Notes: generated from the letters alone by a model not told the origin. A stretch of DNA of 64,000 nt from Candidatus Woesearchaeota archaeon B3_Woes (GCA_005222965.1 NJBG01000001.1:208323-272322); one strand, 5' to 3'. Counted from the stretch's first letter, positions 3,467 through 27,483 are shown. Made by a program: numbers and translations.

Positions 3467-4079
3467 CAACATTCTTATAAGAAGCCCAAGTCTTTCTGAA
3501 AATATCAGGATATTTATTCCAGTTTTTCTTTAAAAATTCCTGAGTCCTTGGGTCAGAAGGATACCCAGAACCGAAATTAATGTTTATTTTCTTTTTAATC
3601 TTCTCAATTTCACTATCTCTTGTAACCTTTGCTAAAATAGAAGCAGCACCAACAATAACATAATTCAAATCAGCTTTATGCTCTACAATTAATTTAACGT
3701 CTTTCTTTAAAAGATCTTTAACATAATTTGAATAAGCATTAACATTAGTACTAGGACAATCTAGAATTGCTTTATCTGGCTTTAAATTATTCACAATTTC
3801 AGCTGATGTTTTGCCCTCTAATAAATTAAGATTCATGTCCTTTGAATTAAGAACATCATCTACATCTTTAGAACTTAAAACAACTATTTCATAGGATTTG
3901 ACTATTTTCTTAACTTTATCAAAAAGGGAGTTTCTTTCATTAATTGTTAAAAGCTTTGAATCTTTTACACCAATAGACTCTAGTTTAGAAATATCTTTTT
4001 CTTCTATTACAACTCCTGCCATTACTAAAGGGCCTATAACAGGACCTCTTCCAGCTTCATCAATACCGCATAATAACAT
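3429..4079 (-). CDS. rnhB: Ribonuclease HII
   Basis: GIDEAGRGPVIGP, DSK, KAD, AASILAKV, GSGYPSD motifs; C-terminal PIP-like QKKMSEF. Confidence 0.97.
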   Translation of the reverse strand: MLLCGIDEAGRGPVIGPLVMAGVVIEEKDISKLESIGVKDSKLLTINERNSLFDKVKKIVKSYEIVVLSSKDVDDVLNSKDMNLNLLEGKTSAEIVNNLKPDKAILDCPSTNVNAYSNYVKDLLKKDVKLIVEHKADLNYVIVGAASILAKVTRDSEIEKIKKKININFGSGYPSDPRTQEFLKKNWNKYPDIFRKTWASYKNVVKGSYQKKMSEF

Positions 4080-4161: not shown

Positions 4162-4470
4162 GTGATAAAAAATATTCAATTCATCGGATTGAATAAATTA
4201 GAAGATTTGGAAAAAGACACATTTCAGACACTAACATCTAAATATTACAATAAGATTAAAAGAATACCAAAAGAGATAACTTCTTTAACAATACACATAA
4301 AACAGCACAAAAAAAGCCACCATGTTTCTAGATATTCTTTACATATTAAACTAGTTGTACCTTCAAAGGTTTTTGAAGTCAAAAAAACAGAATGGGGCGT
4401 AACAAAGCTTTTGCATAAATCATTTACAGCATTAGAAAACGAACTTCTAAAATATTATAATATAAAATAG
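4162..4470 (+). CDS. Stand-alone HPF/RaiA-like (ribosome hibernation-type) domain protein
   Basis: beta-alpha-beta-beta-beta-alpha pattern; YSLHIKL...EWGVTKLLHKSFTALENEL resembles archaeal HPF-like domains; GTG start. Confidence 0.5.
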   Translation: MIKNIQFIGLNKLEDLEKDTFQTLTSKYYNKIKRIPKEITSLTIHIKQHKKSHHVSRYSLHIKLVVPSKVFEVKKTEWGVTKLLHKSFTALENELLKYYNIK

Positions 4471-4642
4471 CGGGAGGTGGACTTCCAAAAAAGATATATA
4501 AATATCCTTTTTTTGAACCACCGACCTTTGCCCAAAAAACATAAAATGTTTTTTTCCGGGTGCCTCAGGGAAATCCCTATGAGCCTTCCGCAGTCATGAG
4601 GTCCATGACTTCGACGGGCACTCCTGACTGCCCCATCCCGCT
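4468..4642 (-). tRNA. Initiator tRNA-Met(CAU) with four introns (4586-4611, 4562-4577, 4528-4555, 4482-4511)
   Basis: Removing the four inserts gives the 75-nt AGCGGGATGGGGCAGTCAGGAGTGCCCGTCGGGCTCATAACCCGGAGGTCGGTGGTTCAAATCCACCTCCCGCTA with A1-U72, three G-C anticodon-stem pairs and CAT anticodon; each insert forms a BHB. Confidence 0.92.
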
Positions 4643-4737
4643 ATAGGCCATGTTAATTACAAACTATTTATAAGCTTTTTTATTTAAATAAAAAAATTGG
4701 TAATATTTATAAACTACTTATAGATACTTCAAAATAA

Positions 4738-4897
4738 GCCGCGGTCGCTTAGTCTGGCCATAGCGTCGGATTGCTAGGAACAATATTACCTAGAATCTTA
4801 ATAAAGTTCACAAAAATCCGATGTCCTTCGGGGCACGTGAGTTCAAATTGGTCAAAAGGTTTCAAAGCCTTTTGCTTTGAAAGTCTCACCCGCGGCG
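4738..4897 (+). tRNA. tRNA-Ser(GCU) with two introns (4777-4815 at 37/38; 4848-4883 at 59/60)
   Basis: Acceptor GCCGCGG/CCGCGGC, G73, anticodon stem TCGGA/TCCGA, long variable arm TGTCCTTCGGGGCAC, T stem GTGAG/CTCAC; 85 nt after splicing. Confidence 0.93.
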
Positions 4898-4906
4898 TTT
4901 ATAAAA

Positions 4907-6118
4907 ATGAGAAAAATAAAACTTGAATCGTTTTTTGACGAAAAAACAATGTCAGTTCACCTTAGAGAGGGCTCTTTTCCTTTTGCTAAAAAAGGTTCAC
5001 CTGGAAACTGGGATTTTGTTAAAATAAAGAACAAGGAACTAACTCAGACAGAAATAGAGGAAATAAGCAAGGAAATAATTGAAATAGGAGAAGAAGGTGA
5101 GGAAGGATTTGTAGAAATAAATAGAACAGGTTCTACAATAGCTCAATTAGGGACGTTTAGAATTGTAATAACAAGACCTCCTTTTTCAGACGGATGGGAA
5201 ATTACAGCTGTAAGACCTGTAAAACACCTAAAATTAGAAGAGTATAATCTATCATCAAAACTATTGGAAAGATTAGACAAGCAGGCAGAAGGAATTTTAA
5301 TATCAGGAGCTCCTGGAATGGGAAAATCAACATTTGCTGCTGCTCTAATAGAGCACTATGCAGACAAAGGAAGAATTGTGAAGACAATTGAAGCTCCAAG
5401 GGATTTAGTATTGCCAGAGAGCATAACTCAATACGCCATTTCGCATGGTTCTCCTGAAGAAGTTCATGATATCTTATTATTATCAAGACCAGATTATACA
5501 CTATTTGATGAAATGCGTAATAAAGATGATTTTCATCTATTCTCAGATCTAAGACTATCAGGTATAGGTTTAGCAGGAGTTGTTCATGCAACAAATCCAG
5601 TAGATGCTATACAAAGATTTGTAGGTAAAATAGAGCTAGGAGTAATCCCTCATGTAATAGATACTGTAATTTTCATAAAAGATGGAAAAATAGATAAGGT
5701 TCTGGGCCTACAAATTGAAGTCAAGGTTCCATCAGGAATGACAGAAGCTGATTTAGCAAGACCCATTGTTACTGTAAAAGATTTTGAAACAAACAAGCTT
5801 GAATATGAATTATATTCTTATGGTGAAGAAACTGTTGTAGTGCCTGTTGCAGAACAAACAATAAAAAAAACAGGTGCAAAAAGATTAGCAGCACAAGCAA
5901 TAAAAGATTATTTCTTAAAATACTCAGACATGGTGGAAGTAGATGTTGTTTCTGAAAACAAAGCAGTTGTTAATGTTCCAGAATATGCTATTTCTGGAAT
6001 AATTGGAAAAGCAGGAAAACATATTAATGAGATTGAGAAAAATTTAGGAATTAGCATTGATGTAGGAGAAATACAAGGACATTTTACTAATAAGAATAAA
6101 AAGAAAAAACGAAGATAA
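4907..6118 (+). CDS. PINA-family (PilT/VirB11-like) ATPase with KH domain, lacking the N-terminal PIN domain
   Basis: FFDEKTMSVHLREG, IVITRPPFSDGWEITAVRP, Walker A GAPGMGKST, LLLSRPDYTLFDEMR, KH GxxG IIGKAG; start moved to ATG 4907 because 4877 lies inside the tRNA. Confidence 0.88.
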   Translation: MRKIKLESFFDEKTMSVHLREGSFPFAKKGSPGNWDFVKIKNKELTQTEIEEISKEIIEIGEEGEEGFVEINRTGSTIAQLGTFRIVITRPPFSDGWEITAVRPVKHLKLEEYNLSSKLLERLDKQAEGILISGAPGMGKSTFAAALIEHYADKGRIVKTIEAPRDLVLPESITQYAISHGSPEEVHDILLLSRPDYTLFDEMRNKDDFHLFSDLRLSGIGLAGVVHATNPVDAIQRFVGKIELGVIPHVIDTVIFIKDGKIDKVLGLQIEVKVPSGMTEADLARPIVTVKDFETNKLEYELYSYGEETVVVPVAEQTIKKTGAKRLAAQAIKDYFLKYSDMVEVDVVSENKAVVNVPEYAISGIIGKAGKHINEIEKNLGISIDVGEIQGHFTNKNKKKKRR

Positions 6119-25468: not shown

Positions 25469-26086
25469 ATGCCTGAAAAGAAACTAAGGATTTTAGCAGC
25501 AGGAGACATTCATGGAGATGTTGACCTAGCTGAAAAACTAGCAAAAAAAGCAAAAAAAGAACATGTTGATTTAGTTGTTTTATGTGGAGATATAACCTAT
25601 GCAGATCAATCAACAGCTAATTTGATTAAACCTTTCAAAAAACTGCATGAAAAAGTTCTACTAATACCAGGAAATCACGAGCCTGTTGCAACAGCAGATT
25701 TCCTAGCTGAATTTTATGAAATAAAAAACATTCATGGCTATTCTGTTAAGTATAAAGACGTAGGAATATTTGGAGCAGGGGGAGCAAACATAGGTTTATT
25801 CCAACTAAAAGAAAAAGAAATTTACGATTTACTAAAAAAAGGATTTGACAAGATAAAATATCTAAAAAAGAATATAATGGTAACTCATGTCCATCCTTCT
25901 GGAACAAAGATGGAAAAATTTACAAAGATATTTCCAGGATCAGAAGGTGTAAAAAGAGCAGTAGAAAAACTAAAACCAGATATATTACTCTGCAGTCATG
26001 TGCATGAAGCAGAAGGCATAGAAGAAAAAATAGGCAAGACAAAAGTTATTAATGTTGGTAGAAGAGGAAAAATAATAGAAATCTAA
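25469..26086 (+). CDS. Calcineurin-like metallophosphoesterase
   Basis: GDIHG, CGD, PGNHE, THVHP, SHVHE. Confidence 0.9.
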   Translation: MPEKKLRILAAGDIHGDVDLAEKLAKKAKKEHVDLVVLCGDITYADQSTANLIKPFKKLHEKVLLIPGNHEPVATADFLAEFYEIKNIHGYSVKYKDVGIFGAGGANIGLFQLKEKEIYDLLKKGFDKIKYLKKNIMVTHVHPSGTKMEKFTKIFPGSEGVKRAVEKLKPDILLCSHVHEAEGIEEKIGKTKVINVGRRGKIIEI

Positions 26087-27483
26087 CCTTTACAAACACC
26101 CATAGGCTCTAATCTAACAACTTTAGGAGAAATTCCAGACTTATCAACACTTTCTATAACATCTGAAACATTTTTATAAGCTTCAGGGGCTTCTTCAGAT
26201 AAAATTTTAGGATGAGTTGATTTTGCAATTATACCACGAGAAGCTAATCCTTTACGAATATCTTCTCCATCAAACTTTCTTATTGCGGCATGCCTTGACA
26301 TAGAACGTCCAGCACCATGACAAGTACTTCCAAATGTCTTTTCCATAGCTTTAGAACTTCCTTTACAAATAAAAGAAGCAGTTCCCATTGAGCCTGCAAC
26401 TAAAACAGGATTTCCAGGAAAAGCTCTTGTAGCGCCTTTTCTATGAACATAAACCTCTTTTTCAACACCATCAACTAAATGCTTCTCTAATTTAACAACA
26501 TTATGACATAATCCATAGATAGTATGCATATCCATCTCCTGCCAAGTTCTACCAAATACCTTTTCAAAAGTTTCCCTTATCCATTGCGTCATAACAAGGC
26601 GATTTGTAAAAGAATAATTAACAGCGCACTTCATTGCTTTAAAATAATCCTGACCTTCTGAAGAATTTACAGGAGCACAAGCCAATTGTCTATCAGCTAA
26701 TTTAATCTTATACTTTTGAACAGCTTTTTCCTGAATTCTCAAATAATCTGTAGCAACCTGGTGACCTAAACCTCTAGAACCGCAATGAAGCATAATAACT
26801 ACTTGATTTTTATCTGTTATTCCTAACTTAGAAGCAAATTCTTTATCATAAATATCACTTACTTTTTGTATTTCCAAGAAATGATTACCAGCACCTAAAG
26901 TCCCAAGCTGTGGTTTTCCTCTTTTTTTTGCTAAATCACTGACTTTAGAAGGATCAGCACCAGACATACATCCATTTTCTTCTAATGATGCTAAATCTTC
27001 TTTAACACCATAACCATTCTCAACAGCCCATTTACATCCTTTAACCAAAACTTCATCTAATTCAGAATCACTAAGCCTAAGCTTTCCTTTAGAACCAACT
27101 CCACAAGGAATAGTTTTGAATAATTCAGTAATAAGTTCTTCCATCTTAGAATTAACTTCATCATAAGTTAAATTCGTACGAATAGAATTTATCCCGCAGT
27201 TAATATCAAAACCACATAAGCCAGCGCTTATAACACCGTCGACAGCATCAAAAGCAGCAACACTTCCCATAGGCAATCCATAACCAAAATGAGCATCAGA
27301 AAGTGCTACAACAGGATCAATCACACCAGGCATCTGAGTTACATTCATAATCTGTCCAACAGTTCCATCTTCTAATTCATCGATTATAGCTTTATTTCCT
27401 ATAACTAGCCCATTTACATTCATAGAGCCTTCTCTAGGTAACTGCCATTCAAATTCATTTAATTTTTTTAATTTTTCTTTCAT
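26083..27483 (-). CDS. rtcB: RtcB RNA-splicing ligase
   Basis: DAHFGYG, GFDINCG, GTLGAGNHFLE, HCGSRGLG, HN, HRKGAT, HGAGR, EEAPEAYK. Confidence 0.97.
   Translation of the reverse strand: MKEKLKKLNEFEWQLPREGSMNVNGLVIGNKAIIDELEDGTVGQIMNVTQMPGVIDPVVALSDAHFGYGLPMGSVAAFDAVDGVISAGLCGFDINCGINSIRTNLTYDEVNSKMEELITELFKTIPCGVGSKGKLRLSDSELDEVLVKGCKWAVENGYGVKEDLASLEENGCMSGADPSKVSDLAKKRGKPQLGTLGAGNHFLEIQKVSDIYDKEFASKLGITDKNQVVIMLHCGSRGLGHQVATDYLRIQEKAVQKYKIKLADRQLACAPVNSSEGQDYFKAMKCAVNYSFTNRLVMTQWIRETFEKVFGRTWQEMDMHTIYGLCHNVVKLEKHLVDGVEKEVYVHRKGATRAFPGNPVLVAGSMGTASFICKGSSKAMEKTFGSTCHGAGRSMSRHAAIRKFDGEDIRKGLASRGIIAKSTHPKILSEEAPEAYKNVSDVIESVDKSGISPKVVRLEPMGVCKG

Follow-up and report, generated by a model that had tools for sequence, protein, structure and literature searches.

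Two introns split a tRNA-Ser(GCU) gene of a Woesearchaeota archaeon, and its T-loop intron resembles introns that a sister genus carries in unrelated tRNA genes

Can a segment of archaeal DNA in which the standard finders see no tRNA nevertheless encode one and, if so, where do the sequences that interrupt it come from? The question is raised by positions 4738-4897 (+) of a 64,000-nt stretch of Candidatus Woesearchaeota archaeon B3_Woes (GCA_005222965.1 NJBG01000001.1:208323-272322), the whole of which is called the window in this study, and for which a preliminary description had proposed a tRNA-Ser(GCU) gene carrying two introns. ARAGORN calls no tRNA in the unspliced window over all its 64 kb, Rfam at gathering scores reports nothing, and a permissive Rfam scan of positions 4300-5100 returned four chance matches only, with no tRNA among them. 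Read directly, however, this 160-nt segment is a tRNA-Ser(GCU) gene that two inserts split in three. In what follows, G000 denotes this genome, C1 its contig containing the window, and other G-numbers relatives from the same order; coordinates given without a contig name are those of the window.

Specifically, exon 1 (4738-4776, +) comprises tRNA positions 1-37, that is the 5' strand of the acceptor stem, the D-arm, the 5' strand of the anticodon stem, the anticodon GCT and A37, as assigned by ARAGORN on the spliced form. It is followed by intron 1 (4777-4815, +), which is 39 nt long, has 26% GC, lies at 37/38 in a relaxed bulge-helix-bulge (BHB) motif and was located by a BHB scan and a check of the spliced product. 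Exon 2 (4816-4847, +) covers positions 38-59, with the 3' strand of the anticodon stem, the long variable arm, the 5' strand of the T-stem and the T-loop TTCAAA. Intron 2 (4848-4883, +; 36 nt, 36% GC) interrupts the T-loop at 59/60 and displays TTCA/TGAA pairing, 3-nt bulges and an inner hairpin. Exon 3 (4884-4897, +) supplies positions 60-73, namely T60, the 3' strands of the T-stem and of the acceptor stem, and the discriminator G, the CCA end not being encoded. In addition, an AT-rich TATA-like box (TTTATAAA, 4706-4713, +), read from the sequence as a putative promoter, lies 25-32 nt 5' of the mature tRNA end, a spacing that we take to be typical of archaeal promoters.

Following the removal of both introns by coordinate, ARAGORN drew a clean cloverleaf, an 85-nt tRNA-Ser(gct) with a 7-bp acceptor stem and the T-loop TTCAAAT, whose GC content is 61.2% as compared to 30% for the genome. 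A long variable arm, a 3-bp D-stem, G73 and a Ser anticodon are the identity elements of tRNA-Ser; all of them appear in the ARAGORN drawing, which identifies the product as a class II tRNA-Ser, and the class II features are likewise found in Ser(CGA), Ser(GGA) and Ser(UGA) of G000. At the junctions of intron 1, the central helix TTGC/ACAA contains one C-A mismatch and is accompanied by an inner helix GAAC/GTTC, the BHB scan scoring three of four central pairs and at least three pairs in both the outer and the inner helix. The central helix of intron 2 (TTCA/TGAA) is perfect, with four of four pairs, and its outer helix is the T-stem, with at least three pairs; when the T-arm piece is folded at minimum energy, a 3-nt bulge appears on both strands around a 5-bp helix formed by the T-loop and intron 2. 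The unspliced 160-nt precursor is predicted to fold at -55.8 kcal/mol (z = -4.79, equalled by 0 of 200 shuffles) into a cloverleaf-like structure in which the acceptor, anticodon, variable and T helices are retained and the anticodon and T arms are extended. Moreover, a parser that demands an acceptor pair, BHB-bounded inserts and a cloverleaf recovered the identical two introns independently. All together, these data confirm that positions 4738-4897 are a real two-intron tRNA-Ser(GCU) gene, and the preliminary description proved correct as regards the gene itself, the 39-nt intron at 37/38 with its mismatched helix and inner GAAC/GUUC, and the 36-nt intron at 59/60 with its perfect UUCA/UGAA.

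Are these introns shared by related genomes? The whole gene was used as a BLAST query against 40 relatives, and 12 loci of the same order, picked for clear exon matches, were then examined. The exons are kept in all 12 genomes, exon 1 (query bases 1-39) at 79-95% identity, whereas the inserts vary in presence, length and sequence: nine orthologues carry an intron at 37/38 and four an intron at 59/60, and one (G022) has no intron at all. ARAGORN confirmed this reading for 10 of the 12; the 37/38 intron of G033 was taken from the locus sequence, and the G036 orthologue, which yielded no ARAGORN call after the removal of one insert, was read by eye as containing three introns. By eye, the 37/38 introns of about 40 nt in the Ser(GCU) genes of G033, G017, G027 and G016 look homologous, and the 37/38 intron of tRNA-Tyr is 88% identical between G000 and G001, the latter being the sole other genome of the same family that was compared and representing a sister genus. 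As this likeness among orthologues is the pattern expected from vertical descent, the Ser(GCU) 37/38 intron appears to be of long standing in the order and to have been passed on vertically there. The 59/60 introns found in the Ser(GCU) genes of G028, G025, G036 and G017 (28, 74, 19 and 44 nt, respectively) are unlike that of G000.

The relatives of intron 2 were found instead in other tRNA genes. Query bases 104-148, which span the T-loop and intron 2, match four places in G001 with 84-91% identity (E 1e-10), and these places are the T-loops of Pro(UGG), Tyr(GUA), a duplicated Tyr 3' piece and Ile(GAU). In comparisons of the 59/60 introns themselves, with z-scores set against shuffled sequences (mean identity 0.52), the G000 Ser(GCU) intron is 89% identical to that of G001 Pro(UGG) (z 7.3), 83-86% to those of Tyr(GUA) and its 3' piece (z 6.2-7.1), 78% to that of Ile(GAU) (z 5.3) and 72% to that of Trp(CCA) (z 4.1), and 69% to that of Ser(UGA) in G000 (z 3.7). 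Within G001, the Pro and Tyr introns share 0.89 identity. The five-sequence alignment of this homologous family has a mean column identity of 83%, with 30 of 53 columns invariant, and its variable columns fall mostly in the inner hairpin, where the changes look paired by eye. A covariance model built from the alignment, R1, scored above 70 bits in G000 and G001 only, out of 41 genomes searched; G001 Ser(UGA) reached 49.8 bits, and other families at most 46 bits. The family, of which 5-7 members were found, is seen at 59/60 only, across the two genera. In G000, no 59/60 intron is present in Tyr, Ile(GAU) or Trp, and the one in Pro(UGG), of 41 nt, is unrelated.

A family whose members occupy precisely one and the same T-loop site in tRNA genes unrelated to each other suggests intron-precise copying between tRNA genes. 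In particular, introns that are at least about 80% alike in tRNA genes of different isotypes, as found here for the Ser(GCU) 59/60 intron, resemble, to judge from the alignments, the signature of transposition known from Thermoproteales. An additional R1 match at C1:856197-856247 (16 bits, E 0.27) was rejected as a family member, being a tandem 32-nt repeat with no tRNA piece, and was treated as chance. The repeat as a whole (C1:856197-856260, +) lies just 5' of a gene for a 227-aa tyrosine recombinase.

The neighbour of the Ser(GCU) gene shows which part of this likeness is dictated by splicing. A divergently transcribed initiator tRNA-Met(CAT) gene (iMet; 4468-4642, -), parsed by coordinate splicing and ARAGORN, contains four introns on the same strand, at 29/30 (4586-4611, 26 nt), 37/38 (4562-4577, 16 nt), 43/44 (4528-4555, 28 nt) and 59/60 (4482-4511, 30 nt). 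Splicing leaves 75 nt, called as tRNA-Met(cat), in which A1-U72 is present and the anticodon stem carries three G-C pairs at its base. The six introns that had been reported for the two adjacent genes are thus present, four in iMet and two in Ser(GCU). It had also been observed that the T-loop introns of both genes occupy the same site and have similar ends (TTGGAAG in iMet, TTGAAAG in Ser) with different cores, and clustering of the introns had been proposed as a test of transposition. Site, ends and cores are indeed as described, the best alignment of the two introns falling under the 0.55 identity cut-off; sequence comparison points to copying between the Ser intron and the G001 Pro, Tyr, Ile and Trp introns (72-89%), and not between Ser and iMet. 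The ends do not indicate homology. In all nine T-loop introns of G000, four bases that pair with positions 54-57 of the T-loop stand before the last two, and these last two make up the 3' bulge together with T60, so that the intron ends (…GAAAG before T60) must pair with the T-loop TTCR and leave a 3-nt bulge. The likeness between the iMet and Ser(GCU) ends is therefore a structural constraint of the splicing motif, not a mark of common descent.

How far do introns of this kind extend in the genome? G000 measures 1.02 Mb in 4 contigs and is 96% complete. ARAGORN finds 22 tRNA genes in it without introns and 32 when introns are allowed, several of these being mis-assigned; Rfam places 29 tRNAs above its cut-off, with the Ser(GCU) locus not among them; and on C1, where at least 39 genes are present, ARAGORN by default reports 18. 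Strict BHB-constrained parsing alone yielded 23 loci only and missed Tyr, Leu(UAG) and Arg(CCU). Since many G000 introns have relaxed motifs, BHB-plus-cloverleaf parsing was combined with T-arm anchoring and hand parsing, and each spliced product was checked by ARAGORN. The resulting census of C1, which is a lower bound and in which some intron boundaries could shift by one to three bases, counts 39 tRNA genes, 23 of them intron-bearing, with 39 introns in all. Sixteen genes have no intron, 12 have one, seven have two, three have three (Pro-UGG, Ser-UGA and Ile-UAU), and iMet is the one gene with four. By position, 20 introns lie at 37/38; nine at 59/60 (Asp, Val-UAC, Pro-UGG, iMet, Ser-GCU, Ser-UGA, Ala-GGC, Ile-UAU and Ala-UGC); three at 30/31 (Met, Arg-UCU and Leu-CAA); two at 29/30 (iMet and Ser-UGA); and one each at 3/4 (Pro-UGG), 43/44 (iMet), 53/54 (Asn), in the D-arm (Trp) and in the D-loop (Ile-UAU). 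The census contains no gene for GGG or CGG (Pro), CCC (Gly), CGC (Ala), CCG (Arg) or CAG (Leu), and scanning with a D-arm pattern for 5' halves that might have stayed hidden brought back 20 genes already known, with nothing convincing beyond them. The genome-wide intron proliferation surmised from the two adjacent genes is therefore real on C1, and the contrary outcome which a BHB-aware census could have produced, that of mostly intronless tRNA genes elsewhere, is not what was found.

The machinery expected to remove these introns is present. A six-frame genome profile search identified a single gene for the splicing endonuclease EndA (C1:502309-502893, +, outside the window), which encodes 194 aa with one PF02778 and one PF01974 domain; no second subunit gene emerged from the six-frame search of G000, with PF01974 followed up to E 1 and PF02778 up to E 10. 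This content, one N-terminal and one catalytic domain in one gene, is that of the one-unit (alpha4-type) EndA. Among solved structures, the nearest are 3IEY_A, the alpha (catalytic) subunit of N. equitans (E 5e-36), and 1A79, the homotetramer of M. jannaschii (E 8e-33); the N-terminal tail consists of 22 residues and is Lys-rich, and the nearest relatives, 62-75% identical, occur in metagenome-assembled genomes titled Candidatus Woesearchaeota, Nanoarchaeota, Candidatus Nanoarchaeia and, in some cases, 'uncultured Methanosarcinales'. One RtcB RNA ligase, the expected exon-joining enzyme, was found inside the window (26086-27354, corresponding to C1:234408-235676, -; 472-aa open frame; PF01139, 530 bits, E 1e-159).

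On this basis, we propose that Ser(GCU) would be transcribed as a precursor of about 160 nt from the only such gene of G000, and that its exon-intron junctions would fold as BHB motifs in which the outer helix is the anticodon stem for intron 1 and the T-stem for intron 2. Four exon bases would pair with the four intron bases lying just before the last two of the intron, and the 3-nt bulge on each strand would hold the cut site. The single 194-aa EndA would then excise both introns and RtcB would ligate the three exons; CCA addition afterwards would give the 85-nt class II tRNA for AGY codons. The 59/60 intron, for its part, would belong to a hairpin family of about 35 nt that has been copied intron-precisely between unrelated tRNA genes, as judged from G000 and G001 together. 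Candidate routes of insertion are a reversal of the endonuclease-ligase reaction, recombination with 3' tRNA pieces carried on small insertions, or another DNA-level route.

Several observations weigh against this account. The central helix of intron 1, with its C-A mismatch, is absent from the minimum-energy fold, and the inner hairpin of intron 2, of 8-9 bp, stands behind a small internal loop rather than flush with the bulge, for an inner-helix score of 0; both introns are thus relaxed BHB forms. They pass the BHB thresholds that we applied, and their splicing in vivo is inferred. A look-up of sequencing runs for the window stretch listed three, recorded as 'DNA?' and sharing 6-8% of its sequence words, and no RNA run. 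The catalytic domain of EndA aligns to M. jannaschii 1A79 without gaps and has no insert, nor does it contain the 6 extra residues that precede the catalytic His in N. equitans alpha. Passages of Kaneta 2018 (PMC5829648) link broad EndA specificity to an 'L3' loop and tie one-unit enzymes without inserts to strict substrates; the loops said to give broad specificity are L1, L2 or L3. As to the copying, it is suggested by a comparison of two genomes only, and no cross-tRNA pair of introns within G000 reaches 80% (the best values being 0.74, 0.73 and 0.69). Outside tRNA genes, the search for G000 intron copies gave none that was significant among the matches listed, with AT-rich ones of at most 19 nt at E of 2e-4 or above, the best non-self one being 18 nt (E 2e-4). 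The Ser(GCU) gene was not found in the 78%-complete G001 assembly. Finally, no reverse transcriptase (PF00078) was detected in G000 or G001, which would leave an RNA-mediated copying route without an obvious enzyme.

These points have to be set against what the other explanations would predict. If the locus only resembled a tRNA by chance, or were a decayed one, and were never spliced into a working tRNA, the silence of the standard finders would follow naturally, and BHB-like motifs by themselves are indeed common, with 1.2 million candidates on one strand of C1 and 1.8 million on the other. The combination of motif and cloverleaf is another matter: the parser, with ARAGORN confirming afterwards, returned 23 loci on the real genome (15 on the + strand), all of them sensible tRNAs and Ser(GCU) included, whereas the reversed, not complemented, contig, which offers as many BHB candidates (178,569) and as many acceptor pairs (19,643), gave two cloverleaf solutions and not one confirmed locus, to be compared with the 15 of the real + strand. 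A decayed sequence would hardly give so clean a cloverleaf after splicing, nor keep its exons across 12 genomes while its introns vary. In addition, ARAGORN, Rfam and the census together reveal only one gene with a GCT anticodon, and AGT plus AGC amount to 19.3 per 1000 codons, or 31% of Ser codons, in 619 long open reading frames, so that this gene must presumably give a working tRNA; we consider decay or chance extremely improbable. A different objection accepts the gene and denies the copying, in that any 59/60 intron needs a T-loop complement, a bulge and a hairpin, and could become similar to another by convergence. The same few constrained bases do close all nine T-loop introns of G000, those of Ser and iMet are alike in their ends only, and under R1 other split T-arms of G000, with differing cores (Ser-UGA, Asp and Pro), score 22-36 bits and split T-arms in 21 of the 41 genomes of the order score 25-46 bits. 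Convergence does not predict, however, that the family agrees through its unconstrained core as well, as the 30 invariant columns indicate, with 78-89% identity and z of 5-7 over a shuffle mean of 0.52, and introns that are equally constrained (those of iMet, Val and Ala, and the Ser(GCU) 59/60 introns of G028, G025, G036 and G017) are dissimilar. Convergence is thus an unlikely source of the likeness.

It could further be argued that the introns persist for a function of their own, for instance as a box C/D guide RNA, as a signal for intron-dependent modification or as a regulator of tRNA supply. Such a role is described for the Haloferax tRNA-Trp intron in excerpts of Yoshihisa 2014 (PMC4090602), GATGA motifs occur in the 48-nt tRNA-Trp intron of G000, and the hairpin of intron 2 is conserved among family members; but neither Ser(GCU) intron, inspected by eye, shows a C box (RTGATGA) or a D box (CTGA), orthologues manage without one or both introns, and the sequence of the 59/60 intron is not conserved among them, all of which makes an own function distinctly improbable. 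A further reading is selection against integrases. The idea that tRNA introns and split tRNAs block integration, invoked as an inference in the preliminary description, goes back to Randau and Soll 2008, as cited in the passages of Yoshihisa 2014 (PMC4090602) and of Fujishima and Kanai 2014 (PMC4033280) that treat it, and the Ser(GCU) T-loop intron does interrupt the tRNA 3' half often targeted by integrases as attB. Two tyrosine recombinase genes are present in G000, and C1:658604-658643 (-) contains a 40-nt piece that matches positions 43-82 of spliced, intron-less tRNA-Ser(UGA) with 100% identity. The gene itself, with three introns, is at C1:661902-662075 and has a 35-nt 59/60 intron in the very stretch concerned; the piece is found 3.26 kb downstream of it. 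Judging by its sequence, this piece is probably an att-like fossil of an intron-less allele, the intron having arrived after the duplication, which would fit insertion followed by intron gain; being the only tRNA fragment in G000, it also suggests that tRNA-flanked insertions are rare. Yet the 3.26-kb stretch, whose three genes encode a PEP-utilizers mobile domain protein, a histidine phosphatase and a protein of no assigned family, contains no integrase by Pfam, PHROGs or NCBIfam. In G001, moreover, a tRNA-Tyr 3' piece 0.68 kb downstream of its gene (C225:2853-2905 and 3537-3588) contains the 59/60 intron, 97% identical to the copy in the gene, and flanks a 0.6-kb cassette with a ParE-family toxin and a small upstream open reading frame; an intron-bearing T-arm was thus still duplicated as an insertion border. 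The two att-like fragments point in opposite ways, the G000 case fitting the integration-blocking idea and the G001 case not, and with sixteen C1 tRNA genes left intron-less we regard such selection as improbable.

In conclusion, the account in which Ser(GCU) is spliced by EndA and RtcB, in a genome with at least 23 intron-bearing tRNA genes, and combines an old 37/38 intron with a 59/60 intron from a copied family is one that we hold with considerable confidence. The direction and mechanism of the copying, and the introns' presumed lack of a function of their own, are conditional parts of it. More tentatively, and with slightly less than balanced expectation, we suggest that the 36-nt intron may belong to a recently mobile family that copies with single-base precision among the 59/60 sites of unrelated tRNAs in one Woesearchaeales family, which would be the first tRNA-intron transposition outside Thermoproteales. 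If this were true, the insertion mechanism could be traced, as sister genera differ in which tRNAs bear the intron. The multi-intron type of gene is already known; what is new here is the cross-isotype 59/60 intron family common to G000 and its sister genus, and no account of intron families in Woesearchaeota appeared among the top-ranked literature matches.

These findings bear on three subjects. For annotation, an essential gene is missed here by the standard finders; because such genes are missed, published DPANN tRNA counts would be undercounts and apparent decoding gaps artefacts. For evolution, the 59/60 family offers a few gain events that can be dated and that could be resolved if the taxonomic family were sampled more densely. 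For enzymology, introns at nine or more positions must be dealt with by a one-unit EndA in which no inserts are recognisable, which puts the rule linking specific loops to broad specificity to the test.

Other tRNA genes of the genome show features worth recording. Met, Arg-UCU and Leu-CAA (C1:84112-84256, 277817-277946 and 563815-563978), although unrelated tRNAs, have an identical two-intron layout, 30/31 plus 37/38. tRNA-Pro(UGG) (C1:157096-157255, -) carries an acceptor-stem intron at 3/4 (29 nt, 3% GC) in addition to those at 37/38 and 59/60, the 3/4 intron being absent from the G001 orthologue. In tRNA-Trp(CCA) (C1:380484-380624, +), an intron of 19 nt interrupts the D-arm and one of 48 nt lies at 37/38; the GATGA motifs of the longer one recall the Haloferax box C/D guide, and the G001 Trp intron looks similar. 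The T-loops of tRNA-Thr(CGU) and tRNA-Thr(GGU) (C1:312735-312834 and 850564-850648) begin with TGC rather than TTC, with G at position 55, normally U. Finally, four intron-less tRNAs (Lys-CUU, Glu-UUC, Val-CAC and Thr-CGU) are clustered at C3:5815-6162, at the end of a 6.3-kb contig with 32.7% GC; three of the four duplicate intron-bearing C1 genes and Val(CAC) is found nowhere but on C3, and the cluster may be foreign, mobile or mis-binned DNA.

The locus can be compared with several known systems. In the portions of Kaneta 2018 (PMC5829648) relevant here, a study that took in one Woesearchaeota genome, one-unit EndAs in DPANN lineages go with more disrupted tRNA genes, and incomplete tRNA sets indicate disrupted genes that escaped detection; the Ser(GCU) finding is therefore expected in kind, and G000 shares the single EndA, the many non-canonical introns and the tRNA set left incomplete by software. 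No insert of the 'L3' kind discussed there could be located in the G000 enzyme, its catalytic domain being ungapped against M. jannaschii EndA.

The multiple-intron tRNAs of Thermoproteales (SPLITS; Sugahara 2006-2008, as given in part of PMC4033280) are similar in that standard finders are blind to them and over half of the genes are affected, whereas G000 is an AT-rich, 1-Mb DPANN genome of Woesearchaeota type with the EndA gene content of one unit, not alpha plus beta. Three introns per tRNA gene is the Thermoproteales maximum stated in the consulted part of Fujishima and Kanai 2014 (PMC4033280), and the G000 iMet gene, with four, stands one above it; up to five are reported in Asgard archaea (2026 preprint 10.64898/2026.10.13.758758). 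Intron transposition in Thermoproteales was described by Fujishima et al. 2010, as relayed in passages of PMC4090602, PMC4033280 and the same preprint, through near-identical introns that occupy BHB-compatible sites in tRNAs of different isotypes. The family found in G000 and G001 is alike in crossing isotypes; it differs in being confined to the single site 59/60, in extending over two genera and in having no pair at or above 80% within G000.

The Asgard tRNA introns of the 2026 preprint resemble those described here in being hidden from annotators, in including T-arm introns at good BHB motifs and in their repeated gains, and no general way in which the introns arrive was found there. Almost no Asgard intron families span tRNA types, whereas in G000 and G001 one family does.

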